From IMG/VR virus record IMGVR_UViG_2698536317_000003: a DNA stretch of 56,811 nt; one strand, written 5' to 3'. Positions 13,417-49,451 of the stretch are shown piece by piece. Below the pieces are notes generated by a model. The model was not told the DNA's origin. It searched no databases and worked only from the letters and a program-made list of their open reading frames with translations. The position numbers were made by a program, and so were the translations under genes. The stretch's first letter is position 1. Every line of letters starts with the position of its first letter. This stretch comes from a virus (Duplodnaviria > Heunggongvirae > Uroviricota > Caudoviricetes).

Positions 13417-13421
13417 TAAGA

Positions 13422-13998: not shown

Positions 13999-14023
13999 GA
14001 TTCCCCCTATAAGTTACATATTG

Positions 14024-14055: not shown

Positions 14056-14167
14056 GATAAATTCGTCACAAGAATTATACCCAGTTTACGAAATGGCTTC
14101 ACACAGGACGCAACAAGATGTATATAGAAAGCAAGAAGAGAAAGCAGTACCAACAAAGGGGGCCAAT

Positions 14168-14323
14168 ATGGAACGCTATGTAGTGGTAATGCTGAACAAA
14201 GCATTCGAACAGGTGGAAGTTGCGATTGTGAAGGGTTTTGATGATGCATTCAAATACGGTCAATTCATGATGAATGCAAAAGAAGATGAATACCGTGATT
14301 TCTTCCTGAAAGTGGTCAACTGA
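14168..14323 (+). CDS. Moron protein E (51 aa), unknown
   Basis: AAGGGGG RBS before ATG 14168; opposite strand to tail genes. Confidence 0.4.
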   Translation: MERYVVVMLNKAFEQVEVAIVKGFDDAFKYGQFMMNAKEDEYRDFFLKVVN

Positions 14324-25322: not shown

Positions 25323-26655
25323 CGTCCTCCTCTTCCGTTTCTACTTCACTGGCTGGGCCATCGTATCCGGCAGCCTCGCGGATCTCGTCACCGCTAAATA
25401 TTTCTTCACCAGTAGCCAGACAAGCCTGATTGATTTGTGCCATTTTGTCTGCGGCTTCCAGTAGCTCTGCTTTGGTCATGGCGTTAAGGTCGTCCCATAG
25501 CACTGATACATCTACTGGCATACTGATAAGGCGTAGATCTGCCATCTTGCGGAACAGATCTTCAATCTCGCCACCGATTTCCTCCCTGCGGGTCATGCAG
25601 CGGCTGTTGAAGTAACGCAGGTCTTCGGTTGATGCACGCTCTCCCTGTTGGTTCCCAACCAGGATGCGGGTTGGAATATCAACACCAGCGGCGGCGGTTT
25701 GCAGGTTTACATCATAGGTTGATGACGGGTCAGACACGGCAGTAACCAGCGGGCTTACTGTCGCACCCTGTAACGCCATCATTACGTCATTACCCTTATT
25801 CATTTCAGCCGTAGCCTCATTGAATCTTTCGCGTAACTCTGTAACGTCGCAATCGTATGTTGCAGCCAGGGAACGGAAGTCAATCTCTTTATCGAACGAA
25901 ATAGCAAGCTGACGCGCTGCGTTTTTCAGGAATGATTCACCACTACCGCCTTCCACTTTTTCCAGTGATACGAATGCGTTGTAGGAAGGTTCAAGGAAAG
26001 CGATGACATCATCAGAATAGTCGCCAAAGATGAATATGCGGTCAGGGTGGATCTTTCTGGCAATGGTCTTACTGTTAATGCGTTCTTTGTATTCCCACCA
26101 TGTCGGCAGGCCATAATTTTCACTGTCCGGGTCTTCTTCGAACTCCTTCGGTGTAAGAGCGCCAGCCCACACAGGGGTAAATTTGGCAATACCTACGCCT
26201 TTTGTCACTGGCTGATCCCACGGCTGGTTATCTCTGACATGAATCAACAGACCAGCATAACGACCAATGAGGCGGCGGCGATCACATTCAGCAACAGTGC
26301 GCCAAAATCTGTTGTTAAATTTCTTCTTGATTTCTCTTTCCCACGGTGTTTCCTTTTTCGCTTTCTCGTCTTCAGTTCCCTCAATCATCTTTGGCTTGGT
26401 GCGCCAGCAAGTCGTAACAATCTTTTCTACAGCACCGTGAGCGATGCCGCCGCGTCTGTACAGTTTGTATAGATCGTGGTACGTGATCTCTTCTTTGAAT
26501 CCGTATTCACTCCACGCAGCATCACGTTTGGCATCTATCCCCATAGTGAATGGGTTGGCTGCGGCATAGCGGGCGTAGGCCGCCTGGCGTTGTGACAAGG
26601 CAGCATTAACCGCCAATTCTAAATTGGATGGCATAATGTTTACTCCTGAATACAT
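25264..26655 (-). CDS. Portal protein
   Basis: 463-aa ORF after large terminase, acidic C-terminus; likely true start at internal ATG 26634 after AGGAG. Confidence 0.8.
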   Translation of the reverse strand: MYSGVNIMPSNLELAVNAALSQRQAAYARYAAANPFTMGIDAKRDAAWSEYGFKEEITYHDLYKLYRRGGIAHGAVEKIVTTCWRTKPKMIEGTEDEKAKKETPWEREIKKKFNNRFWRTVAECDRRRLIGRYAGLLIHVRDNQPWDQPVTKGVGIAKFTPVWAGALTPKEFEEDPDSENYGLPTWWEYKERINSKTIARKIHPDRIFIFGDYSDDVIAFLEPSYNAFVSLEKVEGGSGESFLKNAARQLAISFDKEIDFRSLAATYDCDVTELRERFNEATAEMNKGNDVMMALQGATVSPLVTAVSDPSSTYDVNLQTAAAGVDIPTRILVGNQQGERASTEDLRYFNSRCMTRREEIGGEIEDLFRKMADLRLISMPVDVSVLWDDLNAMTKAELLEAADKMAQINQACLATGEEIFSGDEIREAAGYDGPASEVETEEEDDDEGEEDNQANTSSRDNAI

Positions 26656-26680
26656 GTTTACGCGTTGCTACGCGAAAAAT
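26650..26680. promoter_or_regulatory. Conserved 31-bp element, copy 2 (upstream of portal start)
   Basis: tacatgtttacgcgttgctacgcgaaaaat matches 14024-14055 with one mismatch. Confidence 0.4.
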
Positions 26681-30346: not shown

Positions 30347-30817
30347 TTATTCTTTGCGTAAGCACTGCGTTTTGATGTAGCCCTGAAGCGCGGTTATCTT
30401 CGCGTCTTTCTCTTTTAGTTGTTCTCTGAGGGATAAATAAGATTGTCGAGCAGAGGCATCAAGTTCGCAGGTGGCTCCATCAATGCGGCTGGCGGTTCCG
30501 GCGGGGTCGGACACTCGCACGGGTATTGCGTTGACGCGCAACCGGATAGTACCGTTATCAATGCCAGTGCGCAGATCGGCAATGTCAGATCTGATAGCTT
30601 TAATCTCATCGTGATACCTCTTATCAAGTTTTGACAGTTCGGCGTTTCGCTCCTTCATCTGCTGAATAGTGTTACTTGCCGTTTTCAGTGCGCCTTTCGT
30701 TACCGTGACTTCTTCCTGCAACCTTGCCGCCTCACCCTGGTAATAACATGTTACGGCGGTCAGTCCGGCAATAATGCAAACAACAACGGCGATGATTAAC
30801 GTCTTCACCTTGTCCAT
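30347..30817 (-). CDS. i-spanin (Rz)
   Basis: N-terminal TM plus periplasmic coiled coil; resembles recalled lambda Rz; contains embedded Rz1. Confidence 0.8.
30415..30609 (-). CDS. o-spanin (Rz1), lipoprotein embedded in Rz in another frame
   Basis: MRLKL...VLSGCAS lipobox and proline-rich [23 protein letters not shown] resembling lambda Rz1. Confidence 0.75.
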   Translation of the reverse strand: MRLKLSDLTLPICALALITVLSGCASTQYPCECPTPPEPPAALMEPPANLMPLLDNLIYPSENN

Positions 30818-31296
30818 TTCTCACCCCATTCGCAAACGGCATATTCAACCTCGCGGCGGTTTACCAGGCCTTGCCACTTCTTACCGCCAGCGTATACCCA
30901 GCGTTTAAGCTGTGCGCACGCTTCTGATTTCTTGCCGTCATTGAGTAGCTTTAATAAGGTTGATGTTTTGAAGTTGGTTGCGCCTACGTTATAGGCGAAT
31001 GAATAAAGTGCTGCGCGGGTAAAATCTGATATTTCGACTTTAATATAGGGATCGATAGCTTTTGCGGTTTTATGCAGATCTTTGTTTAACAAAGCATCGC
31101 ATTCTGATTGCGTGTAAGTTTTACCAAGCATGATGTCTTTTCCGGTGTGACCATGACAAACAGTCCACACACCAACAACATCACGATAAGGATCGTACTC
31201 CACGCCCTCTAATGGCTTAATCATCACCGCCGCAATTGCTATCGCCCCACCAGCCGCCGCCGCAACAATCTTGTTTTTCAGCGATTGGCTAATCAT
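30805..31296 (-). CDS. SAR endolysin (phage lysozyme with N-terminal signal-anchor-release domain)
   Basis: N-terminal Gly/Ala-rich TM followed by E...D...T lysozyme catalytic motif. Confidence 0.85.
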
Positions 31297-31497
31297 TTAC
31301 TTGTTCCCCATTCGCGCGTCGTGTTCCTCTTGCGCTCGCTTGTTCTCCTGTGATTTAAAGTAATAATTAACGGCAAATGTGCCTACGGTTGATAAAATAC
31401 CCACAAAGACGGCAATGTCATTGATGGTTATCGCGCCGAAAAAAGCAGTTACGGCCCCAGTCACATACGCGCACGCCTCCCGTATTCTGTCGAACAT
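31297..31497 (-). CDS. Holin (small two-TM, pinholin-like)
   Basis: 66-aa ORF with two hydrophobic helices and charged C-terminus, immediately upstream of endolysin. Confidence 0.75.
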   Translation of the reverse strand: MFDRIREACAYVTGAVTAFFGAITINDIAVFVGILSTVGTFAVNYYFKSQENKRAQEEHDARMGNK

Positions 31498-31504
31498 AGA
31501 TTTT

Positions 31505-31540
31505 CCTCCAACAAAGCAAAAACCCGGCGCGGGGCCGGGT
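31505..31540 (-). terminator. Intrinsic terminator immediately upstream of holin RBS (tR-prime-like position)
   Basis: ACCCGGC-GCGGG-GCCGGGT hairpin followed on the minus strand by TTTTTGCTTTGTT. Confidence 0.55.
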
Positions 31541-31604
31541 AATTACAATTTCGCATTGTTAGGAAATATTTTAATCTGTTTGTTTGCGCTCTACAAATAC
31601 GGCG

Positions 31605-31832
31605 TTAACGATAAGGTCCAAGCAAACGAACAAGCCATTCTTTGTATTTGACGGCAACGTGTTTTGGTGCAAAATATCCTTGCACTTCCTTACCGCCTCG
31701 CCACTCCCTTCTAAATTCGCACTCGTTTTGATACTCCTTTCCGCTTTTACTATCCAGCCAGCAAGCAGGTGAGTAACCTTTTTCACTTCCGAACCGATGC
31801 CATATTGATGACAGTAAAACCCTTTCTTCCAT
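31605..31832 (-). CDS. Hypothetical protein (75 aa, Trp-rich, basic)
   Basis: ATG-initiated ORF upstream of holin terminator; overlaps alternative-frame ORF 31571-31786. Confidence 0.3.
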   Translation of the reverse strand: MEERVLLSSIWHRFGSEKGYSPACWLDSKSGKEYQNECEFRREWRGGKEVQGYFAPKHVAVKYKEWLVRLLGPYR

Positions 31833-32204
31833 ATTGCCCCCCCAACAAATACGGCTTTACGCTGTTCTGTATATCAGTCCGTTATCAAGCAATGTTTGCA
31901 TGTGTTCGCGATCCATGTCGCTTAATTCCCAATAAGGAACATCTTCATTCCTTATCATCACCTCTTCGCCTCTTACCAAATAGGCGATGTCAAATACCTT
32001 ATGCAAATAGATGCCATCTTCGATCTCGTTCATAGGTCGCTAGCCTTTACCAGTTCACCAGCATCAAGAAATATTTTAATTGTTTCTCGCGTCGTCTTAA
32101 TGATTGGCGCTACCCACTCGCCACCGCCAACGCGGATACGAATATCATCGCCTTCTACGCGGTAAAACAGCCTGTCGACTACTGTTGCTGCGTACACGCC
32201 ATCT

Positions 32205-32405
32205 TCAATCATTTTTGCGCTCCTTAATGGCTCGCATGATGTTAATACGCATAGCGTCACTGAATGCGTATATCGTAATGAAAGGCCAGAAGACTAGCTC
32301 GAACCAAATAATGCCGTCACTATCAACAGCTTTCTGAAAAGCGCCCATTAAAATGACACCAGCCAGGTAAATTATAACTACCGCAACAATAATGCATTCA
32401 ATCAT
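32205..32405 (-). CDS. Small membrane protein (MIECIIVAVVIIYLAGVILMGAF...), full-length copy
   Basis: Starts inside 227-bp duplication copy 1 and extends into unique sequence. Confidence 0.4.
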   Translation of the reverse strand: MIECIIVAVVIIYLAGVILMGAFQKAVDSDGIIWFELVFWPFITIYAFSDAMRINIMRAIKERKND

Positions 32406-32529
32406 CTTCACCCCCAAGATCATGATAAATATCGTTAGGGTCTTCACCATGTTCCTCGCAAAAACGCTCAAATAGCGCCCAATTTTCAGAAAGAAACATG
32501 ATTAATAAATTTTTATACCACTCTTCCAT
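32398..32529 (-). CDS. Acidic small protein MEEWYKN...GGEDD (43 aa), copy 1
   Basis: GAGGA RBS; identical copy at 32625-32756. Confidence 0.4.
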   Translation of the reverse strand: MEEWYKNLLIMFLSENWALFERFCEEHGEDPNDIYHDLGGEDD

Positions 32530-32539
32530 TTAATCATCC

Positions 32540-32632
32540 TCAGTCACTATCAACAGCTTTCTGAAAAGCGCCCATTAAAATGACACCAGCCAGGTAAATT
32601 ATAACTACCGCAACAATAATGCATTCAATCAT
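32540..32632 (-). CDS. Truncated small membrane peptide (30 aa) created by the duplication junction
   Basis: Same N-terminus as 32205-32405 ORF, stop created at repeat junction. Confidence 0.3.
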   Translation of the reverse strand: MIECIIVAVVIIYLAGVILMGAFQKAVDSD

Positions 32633-32756
32633 CTTCACCCCCAAGATCATGATAAATATCGTTAGGGTCTTCACCATGTTCCTCGCAAAAACGCTCAAAT
32701 AGCGCCCAATTTTCAGAAAGAAACATGATTAATAAATTTTTATACCACTCTTCCAT
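32625..32756 (-). CDS. Acidic small protein MEEWYKN...GGEDD (43 aa), copy 2
   Basis: Identical to copy 1; start abuts stop of upstream ORF. Confidence 0.4.
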   Translation of the reverse strand: MEEWYKNLLIMFLSENWALFERFCEEHGEDPNDIYHDLGGEDD

Positions 32757-33011
32757 TTAATCATCCTCATCGTCTTCATGTTCAGCCAGGAACTCATCAA
32801 CCACGCGGCAAGTCACTGGCGGGATGTATTCGAAATCATCAGAATCAAGATCAAGCGTCCGGCTGTCGCCGTCATCGTCCAGCGTATTCATCCCTAACTC
32901 ACCGAAAGGGCCATACCCAATATGGCCCAGGTATTCGCATCCAGTAGTAAAGCCAGGGTATTCGCCTTTGCACCAGATCTTGTATAGCTTACTTGATGCG
33001 CTCAATTTCAA
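32757..33011 (-). CDS. Hypothetical protein (84 aa, acidic C-terminus)
   Basis: ORF in small-gene block. Confidence 0.35.
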   Translation of the reverse strand: MKLSASSKLYKIWCKGEYPGFTTGCEYLGHIGYGPFGELGMNTLDDDGDSRTLDLDSDDFEYIPPVTCRVVDEFLAEHEDDEDD

Positions 33012-33312
33012 TTCCCCCTTCTACCCCTTCAGTCATTTTGTATTCCGCAAACAGTTCAGCGCCAAGTAATTCGACATCAGTATCACCAATACCAGGGAAC
33101 GCCAGATAAGCAAAAATAAGGCTTTTAATTCTATTCAGGTCTTCAAGATGGTCTGCATTAAAAGGCGGTTCAGTTACATGGAAGCATTTAACGTGCGCGT
33201 CGTCTTCAGTGGCTACACGGAAACATGCGCCAGGTTGTCCGGCGAATTGCCCTAATGTTTCCTTGCTCGGTAAAGTGCCACGAAAAACTTTAACGCTAAT
33301 AAATTTAGACAT
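32989..33312 (-). CDS. Hypothetical protein (107 aa)
   Basis: ORF in small-gene block. Confidence 0.35.
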   Translation of the reverse strand: MSKFISVKVFRGTLPSKETLGQFAGQPGACFRVATEDDAHVKCFHVTEPPFNADHLEDLNRIKSLIFAYLAFPGIGDTDVELLGAELFAEYKMTEGVEGGIEIERIK

Positions 33313-33315
33313 TTA

Positions 33316-33573
33316 TTATTCTCCTTCATAAAGAATTGCCACCAGTTCGGCATCTGTTAGCGTGTTGTGATCTTTATAAGTACCGTAGCGGGCAACGAAA
33401 GCTATTTCGCCAGCTATTTTCCGCCACATAGGGATAGACTCATTAAAATAGGTATTCTCCATTGCCTCCCTGTACGCCAGTTCATAAAAACGCCCGCTAT
33501 TTACATCTTCAATAACGCGGCTGTATGTGCCATCAACGCTACTAACGCCGCGCCACAGCCTGAACACAACCAT
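33316..33573 (-). CDS. Hypothetical protein (85 aa)
   Basis: ORF in small-gene block. Confidence 0.35.
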   Translation of the reverse strand: MVVFRLWRGVSSVDGTYSRVIEDVNSGRFYELAYREAMENTYFNESIPMWRKIAGEIAFVARYGTYKDHNTLTDAELVAILYEGE

Positions 33574-33575
33574 AA

Positions 33576-33875
33576 TTAAAACTCCGCACCAGGTAAGCTA
33601 CGCGCTTTATTTACAACATCTTGTTTTAACAATAATAGTGAGTGATAATGCATGTTAAACATTCTGCAAAGTGGTGTTTCACTATTTTCTGACTTAATTT
33701 TGAATAACTGGTTTGCAGTAAAAATCATGTCGTCGTCTGTTATGTATAACCAGTCGCCGCGCTTACCAACAACAATATGAGATTTTCCCCAGCTATCTTT
33801 AAATTCATAATTGCAGAAAACATCACCTTTAGGCACTTCAACAAAACAGCACGCTATGAATTTATCGCTTTTCAT
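33576..33875 (-). CDS. Hypothetical protein (99 aa)
   Basis: ORF in small-gene block. Confidence 0.35.
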   Translation of the reverse strand: MKSDKFIACCFVEVPKGDVFCNYEFKDSWGKSHIVVGKRGDWLYITDDDMIFTANQLFKIKSENSETPLCRMFNMHYHSLLLLKQDVVNKARSLPGAEF

Positions 33876-33917
33876 GATTCAACCCTTCTGGTTTGATGGG
33901 CCATCCGACCCCGTGCT

Positions 33918-34127
33918 TTATCCTTCTTTGCCTCCCTTGAACCCCAAACACTCCGCGTATTCGTCAATGCTTAATGCTTCTTCACCTGGTGCCAGTAGTT
34001 CGAAGTATCTGGCATATAACTCAAACACCCAGGCAGGATATTTTGCGTTTGCGTTCATCTTCTTGCCCCCCCATCCGTCTTTCTGTGGCTTATATATAAC
34101 AAAATGGCACTGCCGAAACAATGCCAT
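33918..34127 (-). CDS. Hypothetical protein (69 aa)
   Basis: Start ATG lies inside a CCATTTTGTATAC motif. Confidence 0.3.
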   Translation of the reverse strand: MALFRQCHFVIYKPQKDGWGGKKMNANAKYPAWVFELYARYFELLAPGEEALSIDEYAECLGFKGGKEG

Positions 34128-34174
34128 TTTGTATACATTGTGATACGAGTCACATTTTGCGCAATTAACTTTTA

Positions 34175-34441
34175 TCAGAAAGCCCCTTTATAATCGACCG
34201 TGTATTTTGCCACCAATTTCCATTCACAATAATTTTCCATGTCGCGCGGTTGCCAGCCTTTCATCCCGACAGCACTCCGCGCAGCGTGACGGCGACAATT
34301 GTCGTTAAGATCTACAACACACCACGGCTGAAGGATAAACATGTATTGCGCCTCGTTAACAAGGATCGCCATCTGCTTTCCTGTTGCCTTATCTTTCGCC
34401 CGGAAATAACTTACCCCGATTTTCATTTTTAATAACCTCAA
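34175..34441 (-). CDS. Hypothetical protein (88 aa)
   Basis: ORF in small-gene block. Confidence 0.35.
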   Translation of the reverse strand: MRLLKMKIGVSYFRAKDKATGKQMAILVNEAQYMFILQPWCVVDLNDNCRRHAARSAVGMKGWQPRDMENYCEWKLVAKYTVDYKGAF

Positions 34442-34637
34442 TCAACATTTCTTCTTCCAGGTTAGCCGGACGTTTACGAAATATCCCGGCAAAAACCAGA
34501 TCGTCGAGTAGGTCTTTACGCTTAAATAACCACTCCTTCATTATTACCCCGTCGTCGCTGCGATATACGACGCCGTTTTTCAGAAAATAAAAAGTACGGG
34601 TGTTTGTCTGGAGGTATAGATCTTCGTAAACGTCCAT
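34389..34637 (-). CDS. Hypothetical protein (82 aa)
   Basis: ORF in small-gene block. Confidence 0.3.
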   Translation of the reverse strand: MDVYEDLYLQTNTRTFYFLKNGVVYRSDDGVIMKEWLFKRKDLLDDLVFAGIFRKRPANLEEEMLIEVIKNENRGKLFPGER

Positions 34638-34641
34638 GATG

Positions 34642-34869
34642 TTAACCCTCGACTACTTCCAGCCCGCGACCCTTGTCGCCTACGAACTCTGCCAGGCTGA
34701 ATGTATACGACCACGCCGGATTTATGTGATGGTCATCAGCGCCAGCGGCAATTAGGTCAGCACCGTTAATCATGCAAGTGACACCATCGCTATGAACGAC
34801 GTTAACCACCTTACCAACAACCTGTTTCAGTGACGGATAACCGTGATCATGCAAGAATTTGACTTTCAT
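34642..34869 (-). CDS. Hypothetical protein (75 aa)
   Basis: ORF in small-gene block. Confidence 0.35.
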   Translation of the reverse strand: MKVKFLHDHGYPSLKQVVGKVVNVVHSDGVTCMINGADLIAAGADDHHINPAWSYTFSLAEFVGDKGRGLEVVEG

Positions 34870-34871
34870 CT

Positions 34872-35150
34872 TTACCTCTTATAAGTAACAGCATCAGAGA
34901 TCAATAACACCGCCAACATCTCACCGTTATGTAACGGATCTGGAATACCAAAAAATATATCGCTTTTACTGTCAGGCACTACTACGCACATATTGCCTTG
35001 TTTATCTTCATGTACAAACCACGGCTTTTCGTGTGGCTCAAACATTCCAAAAAGCAATTTAAGATCTATCTCTTCACCCTTCGTGAATAACGATACATCC
35101 GTTGTAGCGATAACTAACGCTTTCTGATCTGCTGTTTTCTTTGTTCTCAT
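34872..35150 (-). CDS. Hypothetical protein (92 aa)
   Basis: ORF in small-gene block. Confidence 0.35.
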   Translation of the reverse strand: MRTKKTADQKALVIATTDVSLFTKGEEIDLKLLFGMFEPHEKPWFVHEDKQGNMCVVVPDSKSDIFFGIPDPLHNGEMLAVLLISDAVTYKR

Positions 35151-35425
35151 TACTCTGTACCCCAGCGGTCTATGCTGATTAAAAAGTCACGGATAGCGCG
35201 GCGTTCGTCGCGCGTTGGCTTGCGCTTCCGGTAAATCTTGAAATCAAACCATTCTTTTTCTTGTTCGAAATCCAGGTCGTAAGCAAGTGCCTCAATGTAT
35301 CCGCACTCGTGATACTGGTACGCCACGCCAGCACGAACAAAAAAGCGGGTTTTATCCCGCTTGTGTTCATAGATACGCATATTCACCCCGTTAAGCAGTT
35401 GTGTAGCTGTCCACCAGCTTTTCAT
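35150..35425 (-). CDS. Hypothetical protein (91 aa)
   Basis: ORF in small-gene block. Confidence 0.35.
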   Translation of the reverse strand: MKSWWTATQLLNGVNMRIYEHKRDKTRFFVRAGVAYQYHECGYIEALAYDLDFEQEKEWFDFKIYRKRKPTRDERRAIRDFLISIDRWGTE

Positions 35426-35621
35426 CTTTCATTCTGGCAAGCTGGGCGATGTTCATCGTGTAGCCGCCATCGGAGAAAAGCCACTCTGCCGTCTTGCGAC
35501 GAAAAGAAATATCATCATAGTTGCGCGTCCATGTAGTGATCGCTACGCGTTTCCCATCAGTGGCGAACATAGATAACGCGTTATCAACTACGTCGATAGC
35601 CTGCCAGATTTTTAGATCCAT
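35391..35621 (-). CDS. Hypothetical protein (76 aa)
   Basis: ORF in small-gene block. Confidence 0.3.
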   Translation of the reverse strand: MDLKIWQAIDVVDNALSMFATDGKRVAITTWTRNYDDISFRRKTAEWLFSDGGYTMNIAQLARMKDEKLVDSYTTA

Positions 35622-35977
35622 GATTTATCCCCGTAAATTTTGAATAATTCCCGCGCTTCCTGATCTTCGAATAGCTTTATATGCAGATCATGCAGGCGGC
35701 GCATAGTGCGGAAGCGCGGTCTGAATTCCTGGTTTCTTTTAATGTACTTACCACCAATTGAATAAATATGACCGTATGCATACCATCTATTACCCACCCA
35801 AATTAGATATTCTTCACCCTCATAATTAAATCTGATTGTAAGCTCGTCAACCTCCATTATTAATCCTTTGTCGAGGATGTCGTTTAGCATATCATCCCAT
35901 TCTTTGAGAAACGGTCGTTGATACATACCGAAAATTGTATTTGCAGCGTGGCAAAGGTAATCAATGATTATCTGCAT
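35612..35977 (-). CDS. Hypothetical protein (121 aa)
   Basis: ORF in small-gene block. Confidence 0.35.
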   Translation of the reverse strand: MQIIIDYLCHAANTIFGMYQRPFLKEWDDMLNDILDKGLIMEVDELTIRFNYEGEEYLIWVGNRWYAYGHIYSIGGKYIKRNQEFRPRFRTMRRLHDLHIKLFEDQEARELFKIYGDKSWI

Positions 35978-35981
35978 ATTA

Positions 35982-36197
35982 TCACCACATCATATAGTAA
36001 ACGTTATCGTAAGCTAATTGATCCGCGTCTTCTTGCGTCATGTGCCGCGCTTCCAGAAAGAAATCTTCGTTATGCCATTCACTAACAAGCATTCGCGCCC
36101 ATTTGCGGCGCTGGCGCTTATTGCGTCGCAGATCATCAAAAGCCTTTAATGCTTTGTCGTATGCCCTTACAAGGCGTTTGCGGTTACTTTTCATCAT
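35982..36197 (-). CDS. Hypothetical protein (71 aa)
   Basis: ORF in small-gene block. Confidence 0.35.
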   Translation of the reverse strand: MMKSNRKRLVRAYDKALKAFDDLRRNKRQRRKWARMLVSEWHNEDFFLEARHMTQEDADQLAYDNVYYMMW

Positions 36198-36462
36198 TGT
36201 GATCCTTTAAACAGTCGTTATAGCCTTCAATGTATCCGGTTAATCCAGTGTTACTAACCGACCAGTCAGCCGAACGGCGCTTGATGGCCTTGTCCATAGT
36301 CATAGCATCAACCGGATCTGTTAAGTCTATATATTTCCGCAATTCCGTAACTATTACCGCCCTTAATTGTTGTGCATTTGAGTACGTCCTTGCTTTGTCA
36401 GTTATTCCGTTTACAAGCTCTCTAAATTCATGATCCTTTAATTTAGGCTTCATTATCGTCAC
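36184..36462 (-). CDS. Hypothetical protein (92 aa)
   Basis: ORF in small-gene block. Confidence 0.35.
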   Translation of the reverse strand: MTIMKPKLKDHEFRELVNGITDKARTYSNAQQLRAVIVTELRKYIDLTDPVDAMTMDKAIKRRSADWSVSNTGLTGYIEGYNDCLKDHNDEK

Positions 36463-36646
36463 CCCGCTTGTAAATTTTGACAGGCTTAATAGGTATGGCA
36501 GGTAATTCTCCCTCGTTTAATGCGCTTGCCATGCCCAATATTAAACGCGCTTCTGCACCAGTTACTTTTTTACACCATGCACCGCCCGTTTTATCTTCGA
36601 ACAAGATAACAGCAAACTGATCGTTTATTTCCAGCTTATCCATCAT
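36443..36646 (-). CDS. Hypothetical protein (67 aa)
   Basis: Overlaps stop of upstream Q-like gene. Confidence 0.35.
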   Translation of the reverse strand: MMDKLEINDQFAVILFEDKTGGAWCKKVTGAEARLILGMASALNEGELPAIPIKPVKIYKRGDDNEA

Positions 36647-37365
36647 TCACCCCGTGTAACTCGTTTAATTTCGTTATCAGCACGCGCCTCTTCTTTGAAC
36701 AATTCGGCAATGGCGTCTTCATAGAAAGCACGGTATTTCTTCCACCACGTTGATCGGCTTACCGGGAAAACAAGCTGATTAACCGCCTGCCGTACAAGAT
36801 CTACAGGGAAACGCGAGTACCCGCGCCCGCCGCAATGCTGGCACGTTTTGAACACTGGCATTTCCGCCGCTTCACTGGCTGCTTTATCCGGTACTTCGCC
36901 ACGGCCCTTGCATTGTTTACAATGATTGCGAACTGTCCCATGCCCCTTGCATTTTTTGCAAAGGTGTTTTTCTCCGTATTCGTCAAACGTAAATTTATAT
37001 CCGCCGCACTCCATACAAGTTTTTTCCGTCGCGGCGCTTTGGCAATAATCCCGAAACGCGAAAACGGCAACAAGAATAATGAGATCATTGCGTTTGGCCT
37101 CGTCCAGTTCCATAACGTATTCATAATCTTTTGCCATAGCCCTTAAACGCTCTGTAAGCAAAACTACGGCCTTATGTTTTTCGGCTTGTGATAGCTCCAT
37201 CTTTCCCAAAAAAGCGCTATAGCCAAGCTCTACGCGCGATTGCGCCATACCCGCAGCGGTTAGCGCATCCGTCGTATTAAGAGCTTCCGGGGACGTGCCC
37301 CGGCTTTCGTCAGATAATCGCGGTGATTTAGGAAAGTGGAATTTTAGAATGGATTCTAAATTCAT
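36643..37365 (-). CDS. Putative antitermination protein Q-like with four DnaJ-type CxxCxGxG zinc-finger repeats
   Basis: 240-aa ORF downstream of rusA; repeats CMECGGY, CKKCKGHG, CKQCKGRG, CQHCGGRG; assignment tentative. Confidence 0.4.
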   Translation of the reverse strand: MNLESILKFHFPKSPRLSDESRGTSPEALNTTDALTAAGMAQSRVELGYSAFLGKMELSQAEKHKAVVLLTERLRAMAKDYEYVMELDEAKRNDLIILVAVFAFRDYCQSAATEKTCMECGGYKFTFDEYGEKHLCKKCKGHGTVRNHCKQCKGRGEVPDKAASEAAEMPVFKTCQHCGGRGYSRFPVDLVRQAVNQLVFPVSRSTWWKKYRAFYEDAIAELFKEEARADNEIKRVTRGE

Positions 37366-37547
37366 TATTTGCCCTCATAACGTGCCGCCAGCCGTTTACG
37401 ATCAGAAATGGATTGCACCAGCTTTCTTTCGAACTCTTTCAGCGCAAGTAATTCGCGCATGTGGAAAGCCTGGATTTGTCGGACCGTCTCTAAATCACGC
37501 TCGTCGCGCTGAATATCTATTTGCAGATCTTTAACTTCGTTTTTCAT
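37365..37547 (-). CDS. Hypothetical coiled-coil protein (60 aa)
   Basis: ORF between rusA and Q-like gene. Confidence 0.3.
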   Translation of the reverse strand: MKNEVKDLQIDIQRDERDLETVRQIQAFHMRELLALKEFERKLVQSISDRKRLAARYEGK

Positions 37548-37951
37548 TGCTCACCCCACATATTAGTCGCGTATTCGTCAATATCCGGTAGTAGGTCGCC
37601 GCGTTCGCGGATCTTAATAAACAAGCGTCCGCCTTTTACCTTCCGGCAGCGAACAATTTTTATTGAGTCGATTTGCCCGTCATCCTTCCAGAATCCGGCA
37701 TAAGTAAGGCTGTCAAAAAGGCATTTAGGGATATTGTCCAGATCTCTGATCCGGTTATCCGGCGGCGCGGCGTAAATGGCAATTGCCAGTCGGCAAGGTA
37801 GGTTAATATTTAAATTTAATAGCTCGATGATGTCTCTTACCTGCTCCCTGTATTCTTTTCCAACCTTGCTGATATAGTGAAAACCTCGTGAATGTCGGTA
37901 ATAGCGGTTATTCGATGGCGGGTAAGGCAGGCTAAATGTATACTCGTTCAT
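37544..37951 (-). CDS. rusA: Holliday-junction resolvase RusA
   Basis: N-terminus MNEYTFSLPYPPSNNRYYRH and LDNIPK motif match recalled RusA. Confidence 0.85.
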   Translation of the reverse strand: MNEYTFSLPYPPSNNRYYRHSRGFHYISKVGKEYREQVRDIIELLNLNINLPCRLAIAIYAAPPDNRIRDLDNIPKCLFDSLTYAGFWKDDGQIDSIKIVRCRKVKGGRLFIKIRERGDLLPDIDEYATNMWGEQ

Positions 37952-37964
37952 GCCGCCTTTCTCC

Positions 37965-38441
37965 TTATTTTCCGTGATTTGGATGAAAACCATATTTAAT
38001 TTCAGCTTCTTGTCTCGCTTTGATTGCGTCCTCCATTCTGTCGAATCTGCCTAAAGTAATACATTTATAATTTACCCAAATTTGCGAATACCATTTCTTG
38101 CGCTCTTTATCCCAATAAACACCAATATAACCACTGGTATTGTTTTTGTTTTTTGGTCTATTCTTCGCGTTCTCCTTGCCTAACACCAATCTAAAATTAT
38201 TAAGCCTGTTATTGCTAGGGTCATGATCCAAATGATCTATCTCGTACCCTTCCGGGATTGGGCCGTTGTGCATTTCCCATATAATACGGTGCGCTTTATA
38301 CCATCTACCAAAAAGCCTAACGCGTATGCGACCAGTATCATTTGGACACCCAGCAATACTCCCGGCTTTCATTCTACCGCGTGACTTTTTCCATATCAGG
38401 TTAATACCATCGTAACAAAACCATTCGTGCCAGTTCATCAT
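37965..38441 (-). CDS. HNH homing-type endonuclease
   Basis: Motif HRIIWEMHNGPIPEGYEIDHLDHDPSNNRLNN plus AP2-like C-terminus; AT-richer than neighbours. Confidence 0.7.
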   Translation of the reverse strand: MMNWHEWFCYDGINLIWKKSRGRMKAGSIAGCPNDTGRIRVRLFGRWYKAHRIIWEMHNGPIPEGYEIDHLDHDPSNNRLNNFRLVLGKENAKNRPKNKNNTSGYIGVYWDKERKKWYSQIWVNYKCITLGRFDRMEDAIKARQEAEIKYGFHPNHGK

Positions 38442-38456
38442 GCAATACACTCCCAA

Positions 38457-39071
38457 TCATGCGCATTGCGCTCTCTCCTTCCTTAATGTGTCTAATTTAC
38501 GCTGATATATATTTATTATTTCTTTGCATTCTTCGATTGTCCATTTGTGAGTCTCGTTATTATTTTCTAATGCCTCCACCCTTTCTAATCCTATTTTTTT
38601 TATTAAATTTATTCTGTATAACTCAACATTGCCGTCCAATACCTGATTGCAATGTCGGCATTGTAGGTTTACGTTATCCTCGTTAAAGCGAAGGTGTCCG
38701 GCTGCCGCTACTGTGCGCCAGTGTCCAGCATCAGCGCCGCATTGTTCGTAATAATAAGTCCCGCACGATATACACGGCTGACCCGCGTCACGTTCGCGGA
38801 TATAGGCATTAAATACAGCTTGTGCCTGCTTTAACCAATAACTACGCGGATTTAACTGCTTCCGCTTCCGGTTGCGCTCTTCCCGCTGGCTATCACGGCG
38901 TCTCTTCCGCTCCATAGCCTTCATAGCCTTCTCACGGTCGCGGCATAGCTGATCAAACTTCAGCTCTTCCAGACATTCATCGCTGCACCATGTTTGATTG
39001 TGATATTTAGGCTCAAAAAAAACGCCGCAGCATTTGCAACGGCGTCTTATGGGTTTTTTAGGGTTCTGCAT
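38457..39071 (-). CDS. ninG: Recombination protein NinG
   Basis: Cys-rich motifs and C-terminal HKWTIEECK resemble recalled lambda NinG. Confidence 0.8.
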   Translation of the reverse strand: MQNPKKPIRRRCKCCGVFFEPKYHNQTWCSDECLEELKFDQLCRDREKAMKAMERKRRRDSQREERNRKRKQLNPRSYWLKQAQAVFNAYIRERDAGQPCISCGTYYYEQCGADAGHWRTVAAAGHLRFNEDNVNLQCRHCNQVLDGNVELYRINLIKKIGLERVEALENNNETHKWTIEECKEIINIYQRKLDTLRKERAQCA

Positions 39072-39085
39072 AAAAACCACCCCGA

Positions 39086-39262
39086 TTATTTTTGATTCTC
39101 TGTTTCGTTCAGCCTTTCGGCGTGTCCGGCCCTTAGCCAATGTTCTAAGCATTCGTTGCACTCGTTACAGCCTCCTTTCTTCGTGCTGCATACATTGCAC
39201 ATTGCACGCATGACGCTCTCTCGTTCATAGTCGTCATGCCATTGGTAATTATCAAAAGGCAT
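39086..39262 (-). CDS. NinF-like zinc-ribbon protein
   Basis: 58-aa ORF with CNVCS...CNECNEC Cys cluster. Confidence 0.4.
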   Translation of the reverse strand: MPFDNYQWHDDYERESVMRAMCNVCSTKKGGCNECNECLEHWLRAGHAERLNETENQK

Positions 39263-39383
39263 AATGCTCTCTCCTTTTAAGGTGATTTCTACGCATTTCA
39301 GCGCTGCCGGATTTTTAAAGAGCATTTTGCTTGCTTGAAGTATACAAAATGGATACGTGTAAACAAGACGAATAGCGCCATTA

Positions 39384-39399
39384 TGTGATCCACATCACG
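39384..39399. promoter_or_regulatory. CRP-like palindrome TGTGA-N6-TCACG nested in a 29-bp palindrome
   Basis: ccattatgtgatccacatcacgcaatgg read directly (39378-39406). Confidence 0.4.
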
Positions 39400-39421
39400 C
39401 AATGGCGCCATTTTGTAAATT

Positions 39422-40210
39422 TCAGTCCGGCAAAACGCGGTTGAGCGTAGTACGATTGATGGCCCTGTCGTTAGCCAGGAACACAGCACGGGCAAAGCCG
39501 CGCGGCGTTAGTGAGCGGATCATCTTAGTGCGTTTCGACTTTCCTCCCAACTTCGCGTGCTGCTTACTGTCTTCCCATTCGTCCGGCATTGGCACAGGCC
39601 GGAACAGCGGCTGTTTAAATCCGTTGCCGCACCAAATACAAGTTTTCTTCGTGTATGCGTCGCGGGCCGCTATGTATTCAGGGAAGGCAGGATGTTTGTC
39701 ATCTTCCGGCAGGTAGCCACCGTAAGCGCACGGGTTGAAAATAAAATCAGGTTTACGCCATAGCGTTGACAGTGCGCCCACCGGATTTTCCACCATCCAC
39801 GGCACGTTATACATATTCGCCAGTTTTTCTACCAATTTTGCGTTATACGCCGCCTTTACCTGGAAAGCAGGATCTTTTTTTCGCTTATCAGCGAACCAGC
39901 GAGCACCAGACACAGCGAGATCGTCGCACGGCGGAAAGCCCAATATAATGTCAGGTGCTGGATAAGAAGATAATTCAGGTGAGAACATTGCCAGGAAATG
40001 GCTGTCAATCCATACGTTAACGTATTCAATATTCGGATGAATGATTTTAACGCCTTCATAATCGCCGTGGTTTGCGCCGTCATAGTTGAAGCAATAGCAC
40101 TTATACCCAGCTTCCGCCCAGTCTTTAACGGCGTACCCGCTGCCGTCGTACAGCGACCACACAACCCAACTTCTAAGCCAATTATTTAACCAGTGTTTAG
40201 CCTTGCTCAT
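39422..40210 (-). CDS. Divergent DNA cytosine-C5 methyltransferase-like protein
   Basis: Motif I-like LYDGSGY, motif IV-like GFPPCDDLAVSG, motif VI-like ENPVG. Confidence 0.45.
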   Translation of the reverse strand: MSKAKHWLNNWLRSWVVWSLYDGSGYAVKDWAEAGYKCYCFNYDGANHGDYEGVKIIHPNIEYVNVWIDSHFLAMFSPELSSYPAPDIILGFPPCDDLAVSGARWFADKRKKDPAFQVKAAYNAKLVEKLANMYNVPWMVENPVGALSTLWRKPDFIFNPCAYGGYLPEDDKHPAFPEYIAARDAYTKKTCIWCGNGFKQPLFRPVPMPDEWEDSKQHAKLGGKSKRTKMIRSLTPRGFARAVFLANDRAINRTTLNRVLPD

Positions 40211-40710
40211 TTTCTGCCCTCAAACGTGAAATAGCGGCGCATGATGATAGTGATCACCGTTACCGCTGCCATTTTTGAGATGAATTGCATCGCTGATATT
40301 TCCGGCATAAACGCCATAAACGATAGCGTCGGGAAAATTAACGCATCCCCGATGGCTGAAGCTATATTTGCAGGCCAGCGTTTCGAATCAAAATCACCAG
40401 GCAAAACCCGGTAAACGCCGCCAGAAATAAGCGCACCGGAAACAACAGCAACGAATGACGCGATCGCCACCATTCCGGCGTCGTAATTTATCAGCACAGT
40501 GATTGCGCCAGCGGCGGCGCATGTTGTAGCCGACCATTTCAGGCCGCCGTCATATAACAGAAAGTCGCGGATCATCATATTTACACACACTGCGGCTACC
40601 GTAGTGACCGGAATCACCCACGGGCCGCAATGGTTAACAATAAGGTTGATGATCACGAAAACGGCGACATAAACGCAGGCCAGTAACCTGTCAATTGCCA
40701 CCTTTTCCAT
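40207..40710 (-). CDS. Polytopic inner-membrane protein, unknown function
   Basis: Four or more hydrophobic helices; between the two methyltransferase genes. Confidence 0.5.
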   Translation of the reverse strand: MEKVAIDRLLACVYVAVFVIINLIVNHCGPWVIPVTTVAAVCVNMMIRDFLLYDGGLKWSATTCAAAGAITVLINYDAGMVAIASFVAVVSGALISGGVYRVLPGDFDSKRWPANIASAIGDALIFPTLSFMAFMPEISAMQFISKMAAVTVITIIMRRYFTFEGRK

Positions 40711-40714
40711 TTTG

Positions 40715-41176
40715 CTATCCCTCTTCTGACTGATACCCAAAATTCAAATCAAGCAAATCAGTAGCGCAACGACATTGAGGGTTAATCTCTGAAGGAGATA
40801 AGCCATTACAGGATATTATAACTCCATCATTTACCATCCCATCATTAATATTGGCGGCAGTGAACTGATTTTTCTTTTGCTCATTCTCCCGATCATTTAA
40901 TATTTGCTCCGCTTTTAGTGCGCTGTAGCTGATTAAGTCAACCAAAGTATCAGTAGGGTCAGAACCATTAGCCAAAATTGCCTCTAAACGCGCCTCCTTA
41001 AGACAAATCAACAGATCCCATACATCAAGTGGGGTTAAATTTGCGCCCTTCTTAGCGTTGTAAATGGTGGCTATTTTTGGCGCTGATTTTTCTTCTTTTC
41101 TGTCGTAGCCGTTTTGTTTACCTCTTTGCTCTATTGTTTCTGCTGCAAGTCGTAATAAATCTGCTGCACTAGTCAT
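40715..41176 (-). CDS. Hypothetical protein (about 153 aa)
   Basis: ORF between Dam-like gene and membrane protein gene. Confidence 0.35.
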   Translation of the reverse strand: MTSAADLLRLAAETIEQRGKQNGYDRKEEKSAPKIATIYNAKKGANLTPLDVWDLLICLKEARLEAILANGSDPTDTLVDLISYSALKAEQILNDRENEQKKNQFTAANINDGMVNDGVIISCNGLSPSEINPQCRCATDLLDLNFGYQSEEG

Positions 41177-41717
41177 TTTCTGCACCTCTTGCATATAGCT
41201 CTTTACGTGTTATCTGCGTGAAAATACATTCATGTCTGCACCGTGGATGCCAGATCAAAAACAAGCTCCCTTTGTTGTTTCCGCTCACTGGCTTACCAGT
41301 CGCAGCATTTATAAAAGCCAGCCGCCCGCGCGTTATTAATCTGCATTCGTTTGCCGTCTCAACGCCGTTCATAAACCAGCTAACAGAAATGTCAGCGGGC
41401 AATAACATTACGCAACCGATGTGGTTTCGGCTGTGTTCAAGCGCCGCTTTATCAACGAATGGCCCCGGGTTCGAATATGGTGGATTCATCCAGACATACT
41501 CACCAGGCATTGCCACCGCTCCCCACGGATAATGCAGCGTGTCCATTTCTTCGGTTATATATCGCGGGATTAATGCGTTTGCCTTGTTTGCCGCCACGTC
41601 AGCGACAAATTCAAACTCACGATCCATTCCTCTAAAAACTGGTTTAGGTGTCTGCCACAGGTCTTTAATTTCCTTCGGCGTACTGCTGCCTCCAAAATCA
41701 TTTTTCATTATGACCAC
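41169..41717 (-). CDS. Phage DNA N6-adenine methyltransferase (Dam-like)
   Basis: Catalytic NPPY motif in VWMNPPYSNP; size typical of phage Dam family. Confidence 0.8.
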   Translation of the reverse strand: MVIMKNDFGGSSTPKEIKDLWQTPKPVFRGMDREFEFVADVAANKANALIPRYITEEMDTLHYPWGAVAMPGEYVWMNPPYSNPGPFVDKAALEHSRNHIGCVMLLPADISVSWFMNGVETANECRLITRGRLAFINAATGKPVSGNNKGSLFLIWHPRCRHECIFTQITRKELYARGAEND

Positions 41718-41720
41718 CCA

Positions 41721-41972
41721 CTAGAAATAGTCCTGTTCCGTTCCCCAACGGTTGTTCAAATATCCCACCAACCAGATAAAACGCTCAATACTGATTAGTG
41801 GGGCGACCTTGCGATAATGCTTTTCTAATATCAGCCGCGTAGCTTTATCGCTGTAGCCGTTTCTTTCTACCTCCGCTTTGCAGGCAGAAAGCGCTGCGCG
41901 GGCGGCAGCTTTTACGGCATTAAATTGCAGTTCTGACATATTGAACAAAGCCATAGGATCACCATTCATCAC
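41721..41972 (-). CDS. Hypothetical protein (83 aa)
   Basis: ORF in early-left small-gene block. Confidence 0.35.
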   Translation of the reverse strand: MMNGDPMALFNMSELQFNAVKAAARAALSACKAEVERNGYSDKATRLILEKHYRKVAPLISIERFIWLVGYLNNRWGTEQDYF

Positions 41973-42195
41973 CCCAATCAGGCGCTACAGTCCAGCAAAA
42001 ACCAATGAATGCGCTAACAGCCAATAAAGCGCGGGCTGCAAAAAGAATATTCCCAATGTCGTTAAATTCAGGCAGCGACCACGTAATAAACATATCCCCC
42101 AGCATGATAACACCGATAACAGTCAGGGCCGCCAGGAAAACAAAAAGCGTAGCCAAAAGCCACACCCCCAACCAGTTAAAAAAGCTCTTAACCAT
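41959..42195 (-). CDS. Small two-TM membrane protein (78 aa)
   Basis: Two hydrophobic helices. Confidence 0.4.
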   Translation of the reverse strand: MVKSFFNWLGVWLLATLFVFLAALTVIGVIMLGDMFITWSLPEFNDIGNILFAARALLAVSAFIGFCWTVAPDWGDEW

Positions 42196-42196
42196 T

Positions 42197-42400
42197 TTAA
42201 ACCTCGTCTATTACACCGCCTTGCACGCGTTCCTTAATATCCCACACGTGAGGCAAGCATATTTCTTGATAATAGTGATCCGGCCTGCTGCCGAAATACC
42301 ATTTACCATCCATATAAAAATAAACGCCAGAAAAATCTCCCGGCGCTGCTTTTGTTGCTGCTTCTGGAATTTTCCATTCTTTATAGCGTTTATACTTCAT
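42197..42400 (-). CDS. Hypothetical protein (67 aa)
   Basis: ORF in early-left block. Confidence 0.3.
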   Translation of the reverse strand: MKYKRYKEWKIPEAATKAAPGDFSGVYFYMDGKWYFGSRPDHYYQEICLPHVWDIKERVQGGVIDEV

Positions 42401-42581
42401 ACATTTTTACCGTCTGTTTTAGATCTTTTAATGTGCAAGGCATCAAGCGAAAATGCTGAACGCCTTTAATGATGCAGATTAGGTAAATGTCACCGATTGA
42501 GTTGTAGTAATAACATCCGCAATAACCGACACCAGCTAATTTGGCGTTGTCCGGTAACTTATATTCTCCAACGCACTTCAT
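42390..42581 (-). CDS. Hypothetical Cys-rich protein (63 aa)
   Basis: ORF in early-left block. Confidence 0.3.
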   Translation of the reverse strand: MKCVGEYKLPDNAKLAGVGYCGCYYYNSIGDIYLICIIKGVQHFRLMPCTLKDLKQTVKMYEV

Positions 42582-42679
42582 AAATCACCTCATATGGTAT
42601 TCAATAAACCACCTGATAAACAGGCATAAGGCAATAAAACCCCAGCAACAGCACATATAAAACAATGTGTCGTCCATAA

Positions 42680-42898
42680 TTAAGCCTCAATAACACCGTA
42701 ATCAAACGTGCCTAAATACCGTTCGATGCTTACAACCTCAATACCATCAATGCACCGTTTCCACACAGACACCCGGCTTTCATTTTCCCGGAAGTGCATA
42801 TTAGAAAGCACTTCATCGGCTGGATAGCCTTTCCCGGCGACGTAGGCATCGTGACCTACTCCACCCTCAACACAATAAAGCATTAATTCGCGGGCCAT
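42680..42898 (-). CDS. Hypothetical protein (72 aa)
   Basis: Preceded by CRP-like site at 42980-42995. Confidence 0.35.
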   Translation of the reverse strand: MARELMLYCVEGGVGHDAYVAGKGYPADEVLSNMHFRENESRVSVWKRCIDGIEVVSIERYLGTFDYGVIEA

Positions 42899-42998
42899 CT
42901 TGTTTTTCCTCCGCGCCGTAAACCTTTTGATTTCAGTTCACAAAACGGATTTACGATCACAACACAAAATGTATTTCTATGTGATCGCCATCACTATG

Positions 42999-43619
42999 TT
43001 AATGAAGTACGCGTTTTTCAGGTTCTGGCATTAGCTGTGCGTCTTTCCGCGCGTCATTAAGCACAGCTATAGCTACCTGTACACCTAAATCATTTGCGCG
43101 CATATTATTGCCAACCATTTCGCTGTAAAATAATGGCATGATCGCCTTTACTTCTTCCTCTGTGTGACCTTCATCAATACACTTCTGTAACGCTTTAGCC
43201 TCGAATACTTTTTTCATTACGCCGCGCACAGAATACAGCGCAACGCTACCCATATGATTTTCATCTAACGGGAAAATAACAGCACTTCCGAACGCCAGCG
43301 GGTCAATCTCTTCCGGTACTGGTACTCGCCCAAATTCTTCTTCCATTCGTTTTACGAAAGTGAGGCAGAAGACATAACGAGCTACGGCAGTTTTTTCTTC
43401 AGCGTTTAAAGACACATAATCGCGGATCGACGCGTCCATCACAATATCAACAATCTGTAACGCCAGATTCAAATCAGCGTCATACGCACCAGCTTCCATA
43501 TCTTTTAATACTTCGTGATAATCCTTCGTTTCCACTTCATGAAAACTTGCATCTTCAGCATAACGAGTGATTAACATGCCATCGCTGCCGAGTGAATAAG
43601 CTGTTTTGATGTCGTTCAT
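42999..43619 (-). CDS. Hypothetical protein (206 aa)
   Basis: ORF in early-left block. Confidence 0.45.
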   Translation of the reverse strand: MNDIKTAYSLGSDGMLITRYAEDASFHEVETKDYHEVLKDMEAGAYDADLNLALQIVDIVMDASIRDYVSLNAEEKTAVARYVFCLTFVKRMEEEFGRVPVPEEIDPLAFGSAVIFPLDENHMGSVALYSVRGVMKKVFEAKALQKCIDEGHTEEEVKAIMPLFYSEMVGNNMRANDLGVQVAIAVLNDARKDAQLMPEPEKRVLH

Positions 43620-48404: not shown

Positions 48405-49451
48405 ATGAAGTGGTTTAAGCATGATAGCGATGCGAACCGCGATGAAAAACTTCAAAACGTCTTGCTTGATTATGGCCTGGAAGGGTACGGGCTTTATTGG
48501 TATTGCCTCGAACTAATAACTTATGACGTAGATCAGCACAATCTAACTTTTGACCTACGACATGACGCGAGAATCATTGCGCGAAACGTCGGATCGACTG
48601 AAAAACGTATAGAAGAAATGATGAAATACTTCATCGAAATTGGTTTGTTTGAATGTTCTCAAGGCCACATAACTTGTTTAAAGTTATTGAAAAGGCTGGA
48701 CCAATCAATGACTTCTAAAAGCGCATACAGGGCAGCCATAAACACAGCGAAGGAGCAATTAAAATTAGAAAAGTTAATCAATCCAACACAAAAAGGTCAT
48801 GATAGGGTCATGACCGGGTCAGGAAAGGGTCATGAATTAGAATTAGAAGTAGAAGAAGAAAGAGAAGAAGAAAAGAAAAATATAAAAAGAAAAGAAGTCA
48901 ATCAGGACGGTGATTTCCAGGTAAGCGAGGCGGCTTATCGTTGCTTAGCCTTCTACAACGACAAGGCTGGATGCAAATGTCGTGATGCTAAGCCATTCAT
49001 CGAACTACTGACAGAAACAAAAACACGTAAAGCGTATACGGAGGATGAGATCACATTAGTGATTGAGTGGGCTTTAACGCAATGGCGTAGCCGTGGCGGA
49101 ACACCTAAACCTATCAACATTTGCCGGGTAACTAAATTTGACGGGTATCTTGCTGATGCTGAACAATGGCGCAATCTGTCAGTTACTGTAAACGCTGCCG
49201 ATGTGGTAAATGAGTTTAACATCACGTTTGATGGCCTGTTGCCACCTGCTGAACTGGATCGGGATCTTGAACGTAAAATATATGCGTTCACTGACTACCT
49301 GAAAGACAAAAGCATTAACGGATTTATCGCCTACTTTGAAGCATTCAAGAGCAAGGCTTCAGACTTTTACTTCGGCGATGGCTTCACAGCGACACTTGAT
49401 TTCCTGCTTAAACCAAAAACGCTACGCGATACACGCGCAGGCGCTCTTTGA
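48405..49451 (+). CDS. Phage replisome organiser / replication initiation protein (DUF4373-like N-terminus)
   Basis: N-terminal MKWFKHDSDANRDEKL...GLEGYGLYWYCLE signature; acidic linker. Confidence 0.6.
   Translation: MKWFKHDSDANRDEKLQNVLLDYGLEGYGLYWYCLELITYDVDQHNLTFDLRHDARIIARNVGSTEKRIEEMMKYFIEIGLFECSQGHITCLKLLKRLDQSMTSKSAYRAAINTAKEQLKLEKLINPTQKGHDRVMTGSGKGHELELEVEEEREEEKKNIKRKEVNQDGDFQVSEAAYRCLAFYNDKAGCKCRDAKPFIELLTETKTRKAYTEDEITLVIEWALTQWRSRGGTPKPINICRVTKFDGYLADAEQWRNLSVTVNAADVVNEFNITFDGLLPPAELDRDLERKIYAFTDYLKDKSINGFIAYFEAFKSKASDFYFGDGFTATLDFLLKPKTLRDTRAGAL

Follow-up and report, generated by a model that had tools for sequence, protein, structure and literature searches.

We consider it quite probable that the prophage analyzed here carries a genuine, very recent, and homology-free 227-bp tandem duplication that is most likely neutral or nearly so. 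The duplication lies in the window, by which we mean the whole stretch of 56,811 nucleotides under analysis (Caudoviricetes; IMG/VR record IMGVR_UViG_2698536317_000003). Direct string comparison showed that the two copies listed in Table 1 are the same base for base, arranged head to tail with 0 gap between them. Tandem Repeats Finder returned a period of 227, 2.0 copies, 100% matches, and 0 indels at 32316-32769, and a second repeat search recovered the same pair of copies with an identity of 100%. All three approaches thus bear out the perfect 2 × 227-bp tandem duplication reported in the initial annotation. An exact repeat of 227 nt cannot arise by chance, and this unit is the sole long perfect repeat in the 56.8-kb window, in which the number of N bases is 0. 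The match extends 0 bases beyond either side of the unit, so microhomology is absent from the junction. Read on the coding strand, the unit begins 13 nt ahead of the ATG of a gene for a 43-aa protein (TGAGGATGATTAA/ATG) and ends after codon 30 of a gene for a 66-aa protein.

The chromosomal gene abgT occupies window positions 1-1446 and matches E. coli chromosomes, while a tyrosine integrase gene is found at 55612-56811. The phage relatives retrieved by megablast were only mEp010, mEp013, mEp044, mEp554, mEp021, mEp515, and MagusPhagus. Judging from these matches, the window is an E. coli prophage of the mEpimmI group (mEp021-like) that is integrated at the 3' end of abgT. The mEpimmI phages are a group of Nus-dependent, nonlambdoid coliphages that includes mEp021 and mEp010, and their published integration sites are ydaM, abgT (3' end), or mppA, with a matching integrase; the small genes of the array described below are not discussed in that paper (PMC11893012). 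The duplication lies within this array, which spans ~5 kb and comprises ~20 small codirectional genes from a Q-like antiterminator gene to the holin gene of the lysis cassette. A terminator scan of the region revealed strong terminator-like hairpins only at 35343-35362 and 31522-31540, the latter at the position of the annotated terminator T9 of mEp010. A terminator-like hit at 32313-32330 has a weak stem and was judged to be a chance match.

Table 1 Positions in the window of the repeat copies, their junction, and the surrounding genes (a slash marks the join)
Feature	Position	Strand	Remarks
Repeat copy, upstream by transcription	32543..32769	-	Last 13 nt of gene A, 43-aa gene, and first 30 codons of 66-aa gene
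Repeat copy, downstream by transcription	32316..32542	-	Identical to the other copy; the start of the 66-aa gene is followed by its intact remainder
Novel junction between 32542 and 32543	32528..32557	.	Plus strand ATTTAATCATCCTCA/GTCACTATCAACAGC; coding strand ...GATAGTGAC/TGAGGATGATTAAATG; blunt
Novel junction, coding strand, other spans of the same join			GATAGTGAC/TGAGGATGATT; ...GCTGTTGATAGTGAC/TGAGGATGATTAAATGG...
Gene A, 82-aa acidic protein (84 aa from TTG at 33011)	32757..33005	-	phrog_25234; 82 aa annotated in MIN12
43-aa acidic ORF (MEEWYKN...), upstream copy	32625..32756	-	Native context, immediately following the stop codon of gene A
43-aa acidic ORF, downstream copy	32398..32529	-	Same 13-nt upstream context GAGGATGATTAA kept, ribosome-binding site included
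Truncated 30-aa ORF (MIECIIVAVVIIYLAGVILMGAFQKAVDSD, then stop)	32540..32632	-	Corresponds to transmembrane helix 1 of the 66-aa protein; the junction creates its TGA stop
Intact 66-aa ORF	32205..32405	-	phrog_10061, E = 4e-26; two-helix membrane protein by hydrophobicity profile
Q-like antiterminator gene, head of the small-gene array	36643..37365	-	Pfam Antiterm PF03589, E = 1.7e-29
Holin gene, first of the lysis cassette downstream of the array	31297..31497	-	Pfam holin families
Holin, lysozyme, and Rz cassette	31497 down to 30347	-	

All genes of the region are on the minus strand, and the order of transcription is gene A, the 43-aa gene, the 30-aa stub, the 43-aa gene again, the intact 66-aa gene, and then the small 60-aa and 58-aa genes. 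The initial annotation had described two identical 43-aa ORFs and a 30-aa truncated copy beside the full 66-aa ORF, and this description is correct. Gene A is intact, with its last 13 nt falling within the unit. Both 43-aa copies keep a GAGGA ribosome-binding site and a stop codon just upstream, and because the ribosome-binding site and the close upstream stop are the same in the two, both copies are probably translated. The 43-aa gene ends within the beginning of the 66-aa gene, with an 8-nt overlap of stop and start (ATGATTGA).

Among the loci fetched, seven DNA alleles of the 43-aa ORF were distinguished, with 10 variable sites, eight of them at third codon positions and 0 at second positions, and the number of amino acid changes is one. 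This distribution of variable sites is a clear coding signature, indicative of purifying selection on the 43-aa gene. The 66-aa ORF is open in three diverged alleles, with conservative changes. On sequence grounds, the duplicated ORFs are real genes. The 43-aa protein has a pI of 4.05 and a charge of -11, and the 66-aa ORF is read as a two-helix membrane protein. While the 43-aa ORF matches phrog_15754 and phrog_21467, both function-unassigned families in PHROGs, the family matched by the 66-aa ORF (phrog_10061) is likewise one to which PHROGs assigns no function. Searches with the duplicated genes gave 0 hits in Pfam, NCBIfam, and PADLOC and chance-level matches only in the PDB. The exact 43-aa protein is present in 893 blocks of the public assembly collection, and the 66-aa protein is restricted to the mEpimmI group. 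The 43-aa family is not limited to temperate phages of the mEpimmI type: tblastn detected homologues in 69 phage records (47-66% identity), with virulent Dhillonvirus coliphages, 74-92-kb Pectobacterium phages, and an Enterobacter jumbo phage among them. In all 69 records, the homologue is annotated as 'hypothetical protein.'

Copy number was compared among relatives of the prophage. Among 5,426 complete E. coli genomes, the region is present in 26, and no complete genome has it at two places. The five complete E. coli genomes that cover the whole 901-nt query do so with a span of ~674 nt, which equals one unit. One copy is found in mEp010, whereas MagusPhagus has a partial unit without the 43-aa gene. 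In the MIN12 prophage, which shares 98-99% identity with the window over 40 kb, both flanking alignments overlap on exactly one 227-nt unit. We fetched 51 loci, 31 of which have a full-length match to the unit; each of these (31/31) contains exactly one copy, at 100% identity to the unit in 21 cases, and the junction sequence is found in 0 of the 51. Two independent assemblies of the same prophage, GCA_014575675.1 (L025) and GCA_001284865.1 (L026), align to window positions 16713-38418 (21.7 kb) with 100.000% identity, 0 mismatches, and 0 gaps, except that they contain a single unit. Loci L038 and L039 are likewise identical to the window over 30416-43365, with a single unit only. Given this distribution, a single copy is the ancestral state, and because the second copy is the sole difference from the nearest relatives, the duplication appears to be extremely young. 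The check proposed in the initial annotation, a comparison with related prophages, therefore yields relatives with one copy or none. That annotation had also left the event as either very recent or an assembly artifact. Recency is strongly supported by the 100%-identical single-unit siblings over 21.7 kb, and the artifact side is weakened, rather than eliminated, by the Logan contig ends discussed below.

If real, the duplication would have formed by a blunt illegitimate join between codon 30 of the 66-aa gene and a site that precedes the 43-aa gene by 13 nt. No microhomology is present at the breakpoints (0-base extension), the nearest shared trinucleotides being out of register, and no DNA hairpin is found there beyond those of shuffled sequences (z = 0.19, 0.20, and -1.11). 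Because the junction is blunt and the breakpoints have no structure beyond shuffled controls, a slipped-strand or microhomology-mediated origin does not fit, and homology-independent illegitimate joining would fit better with these features. In most small duplications that have been characterized, the junction shows microhomology of a few bases. The Ikeda laboratory reportedly described, in E. coli and lambda, a class of illegitimate recombination that is independent of short homology.

Evidence at the level of reads comes from Logan contigs, in which all 31-mers are distinct within an accession and k-mers seen once are dropped (PMC12424806). By the distinct-31-mer rule, a genome bearing the duplication must give flank contigs that end 30 nt (k-1) inside the unit, whereas a single-copy genome gives one contig through it. 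Contig SRR17276710_189 (L040) ends exactly at window position 32740, where its terminal 30 nt coincide with the first 30 nt of the unit as read on the coding strand. As this contig differs from the window at three sites, it represents a separate dataset. Contig SRR11658276_125 (L006) has a length of 80,390 nt and is 100% identical to window positions 1-14264; by arithmetic and under assumed collinearity, its end is placed at 32345, 30 nt inside the unit from the other side, and the siblings show the collinearity on which this position relies. Contigs of single-copy relatives, those from Logan included, pass through the unit unbroken. These coincidences of contig ends are far too precise for chance and mean that, in the reads of two runs, the unit is flanked by two different sequences on the left and two on the right. 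Pure invention by an assembler is unlikely. What the graph breaks prove is that two different flanks adjoin the unit in the reads, not that the second of them is the tandem junction. The junction 30-mer had 0 exact hits in genome_contigs, viral_contigs, and metagenome_contigs, and no record was found for the three junction-specific ORF products (52, 30, and 44 aa); contigs built at k = 31 could not span the junction anyway.

The main competing explanation is an assembly artifact, in which the genome has one real unit and two contigs ending in the same 227 nt were joined without merging their overlap, possibly helped by a dispersed second copy of the unit that broke the contigs at this point. 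Perfectly identical copies and a blunt junction free of microhomology are also what an unmerged contig overlap would look like, and such a junction is atypical of slippage or template-switch duplications, which counts against a real event. The junction is found in none of the collections searched, and the closest siblings are single copy. A dispersed second copy would give the same Logan contig ends, and the contigs of SRR17276708 and SRR17276710 are fragmented, with breaks at other positions too. However, the window has neither N bases nor another long exact repeat, and the site is ~30 kb from either prophage end and hence not a circularization point. In the 100%-identical siblings, the contigs continue across the unit without a break, which argues that it is not a dispersed repeat in this lineage, and the survey of complete E. 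coli genomes, with no genome carrying the region twice, points in the same direction. The artifact would thus require that a second copy happen to have exactly these boundaries and, as a second coincidence, that contigs were concatenated naively. Moreover, an SNP at 32769 of the type seen in locus L005 would end the contig at 32739, whereas the observed end is 32740. Taken together, we regard an assembly artifact as unlikely. An artifact of circularization or of terminal repeats was considered separately and rejected: the prophage is integrated and bounded by abgT and the integrase gene, and the duplication lies 3.6 kb away from the small terminase gene, a position that does not correspond to the genome ends of relatives.

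A different question is whether a real duplication is being kept by selection because either additional acidic 43-aa protein or the newly formed 30-aa membrane peptide is advantageous. The purifying selection on the 43-aa gene would be in line with this, and the spread of its family over 69 phage records, virulent phages included, suggests a generally useful function. In addition, boundary breaks occur in two nonidentical datasets, so the duplication persisted at least briefly. However, there are two copies only, and recurrence is 0 among the 31 other unit-bearing loci. The 43-aa gene is also dispensable, being absent from MagusPhagus and at least seven other loci, and the breakpoints cut the neighboring gene instead of framing the 43-aa gene. 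The only families matched are PHROGs families without an assigned function, Pfam, NCBIfam, PADLOC, and the PDB being uninformative for the duplicated genes. No promoter-like site was detected inside the unit, and the count for the region was 16 against 14.5 expected by chance; because neither a promoter nor a terminator within the unit rises above the chance level, it is doubtful that the unit is expressed in the lysogen. Maintenance by selection is therefore, in our view, very unlikely. Very unlikely as well, as we see it, is the related proposal that the duplication is a first step of gene birth in the array, kept for a doubled 43-aa dose or for a new one-helix 30-aa peptide. This proposal fits with the diverged pair of 60-aa and 58-aa genes described below and with 43-aa copy numbers of 0, 1, and 2, as if duplication and deletion at short motifs routinely remodel the array.

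For a recent and nearly neutral duplication, the expected consequences are limited. A minus-strand transcript would carry gene A, a 43-aa gene, a stub encoding one helix in 30 aa, a 43-aa gene, and the intact 66-aa gene. The effect would at most be a doubled dose of the acidic 43-aa protein together with a new hydrophobic peptide of 30 aa. Tandem repeats of identical units are generally unstable and prone to loss by recombination. The duplication would accordingly be carried by a small clone and be expected to collapse to one copy through recombination between its identical units. The initial annotation had gone further and read the duplication as gene-dosage amplification in a moron region, a signature of selection. 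This interpretation is not upheld by the copy number of two, the absence of recurrence in the 31 loci, the lack of a promoter or terminator within the unit, and the base composition, which is not distinct (GC ~0.38 in the unit versus 0.35-0.49 across the array). The 43-aa gene is, as a moron would be, present or absent between otherwise similar phages. Nevertheless, the duplicated genes are codirectional and translationally coupled members of a late-operon array, not a classical moron.

The array region is highly mosaic among relatives, and several further differences were observed in it. Relative to window positions 32625-32769, MagusPhagus (L002) has lost the 43-aa gene by a clean deletion between the near-identical motifs GAGGATGATTAAATG and GAAGATGATTGAATG. 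The former marks the boundary from gene A to the 43-aa gene, and the latter that from the 43-aa gene to the 66-aa gene. One boundary further on, the same stop-start overlap, ATGATTGA, is seen again. It is possible that such short, conserved junction motifs act as recombination points for the gain and loss of small-gene cassettes. Further downstream on the minus strand, the adjacent genes for the 58-aa (31857-32033) and 60-aa (32030-32212) proteins both belong to phrog_15318 and are 30% identical. Their relationship as diverged paralogues points to an older tandem duplication, and in L015, L027, L033, and L047, a further 57-aa gene is called between the 60-aa and 58-aa genes. Because the mosaic region also holds this older tandem pair, tandem duplication appears to be an ordinary route of change in the array. 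Homopolymer runs vary as well. A G5/G6 run turns the 107-aa gene at window positions 32989-33312 into one of 101 aa in MIN12 (L003), and a C7/C8 run at 34073 differs between the window and the Logan contig L040. These differences between near-identical prophages may be either real phase-like variation or sequencing error.

Several observations concern other parts of the prophage. A gene for an endonuclease with HNH_3 and AP2 domains is located at 37965-38456 on the minus strand, between ninG and rusA, and coincides with a gap of 513 nt when the window is aligned with the MIN12 prophage. The gene thus has the appearance of a free-standing homing-endonuclease insertion. In L017 and L019, an HNH_3 gene is found within the lysis cassette instead. 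At 48791-48836, the 11-nt unit AAAGGGTCATG is repeated 4.2 times inside a Lin1244-like gene (48405-49451); by analogy with lambda O, these repeats may be origin iterons inside an initiator gene. The gene for the 1594-aa J-like central tail fiber contains six imperfect repeats of 108 nt (36 codons) at 6393-7394, with 63-71% identity, which probably encode repeated Ig-like domains. A 34-nt element, TGTATACATCTTTACGCGTTGCTACGCGAAAAAT, is present at 14022-14055 and 26647-26680 with 94% identity between the copies, one of which adjoins the start of the portal gene and the other of which lies in an accessory island within the tail region. Finally, positions 12400-14300 form a plus-strand island of small, opposite-strand genes among the minus-strand tail genes. 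The corresponding MIN12 annotations are a KilAC antirepressor fragment and a ParE-like toxin. Compared with the duplicated region, this island bears a closer resemblance to a classical moron.

Overall, the duplication is an ordinary, strain-level structural variant produced by a known kind of mutation, and it is probably neutral. It has little import in itself, as a strain-specific variant of a prophage accessory region to which no function is attached. For annotation, it serves as a warning, because the region yields two identical 43-aa genes and a spurious ORF of 30 or 52 aa. It also provides a small, datable case of remodeling in an array of tiny phage genes, with the 43-aa gene at 0, 1, or 2 copies among near-identical phages. 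In addition, where reads are inaccessible, the exact end positions of Logan contigs at k = 31 can provide evidence at the read level on whether a suspected duplication is real.

The window and the mEpimmI group share the same module order, with the site at the 3' end of abgT and a tyrosine integrase gene at the other prophage end, and the DNA identity to mEp010 in the duplicated region is 85-97%. However, the duplication is present in none of the sequenced members searched. With poxvirus K3L, reportedly a case of gene-amplification 'accordions' under selection, the window shares the tandem duplication of a viral accessory gene, whereas here there are two copies, the neighboring gene is truncated, and there is neither evidence of selection nor recurrence. 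Morons of lambdoid phages are independently transcribed accessory genes, often located between Q and the lysis genes, and their description is credited to Hendrix and colleagues. The site between a Q-like antiterminator gene and a holin gene and the variable presence of small genes in close relatives are likewise features of the region studied here. However, the unit differs from morons in that it has no promoter or terminator of its own and no distinct composition, and the genes are tightly packed and codirectional with overlapping stop and start codons, as is typical of members of long operons. The duplication also resembles the tandem duplications that arise in bacteria and phages by spontaneous illegitimate recombination. 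While the absence of microhomology (0 bases) and of a breakpoint hairpin sets the present case apart from most characterized small duplications, it shares with this kind of event the head-to-tail arrangement, the identity of copies when new, the single-copy ancestor, the size of a few hundred base pairs, and the expected instability through recombination between the copies.
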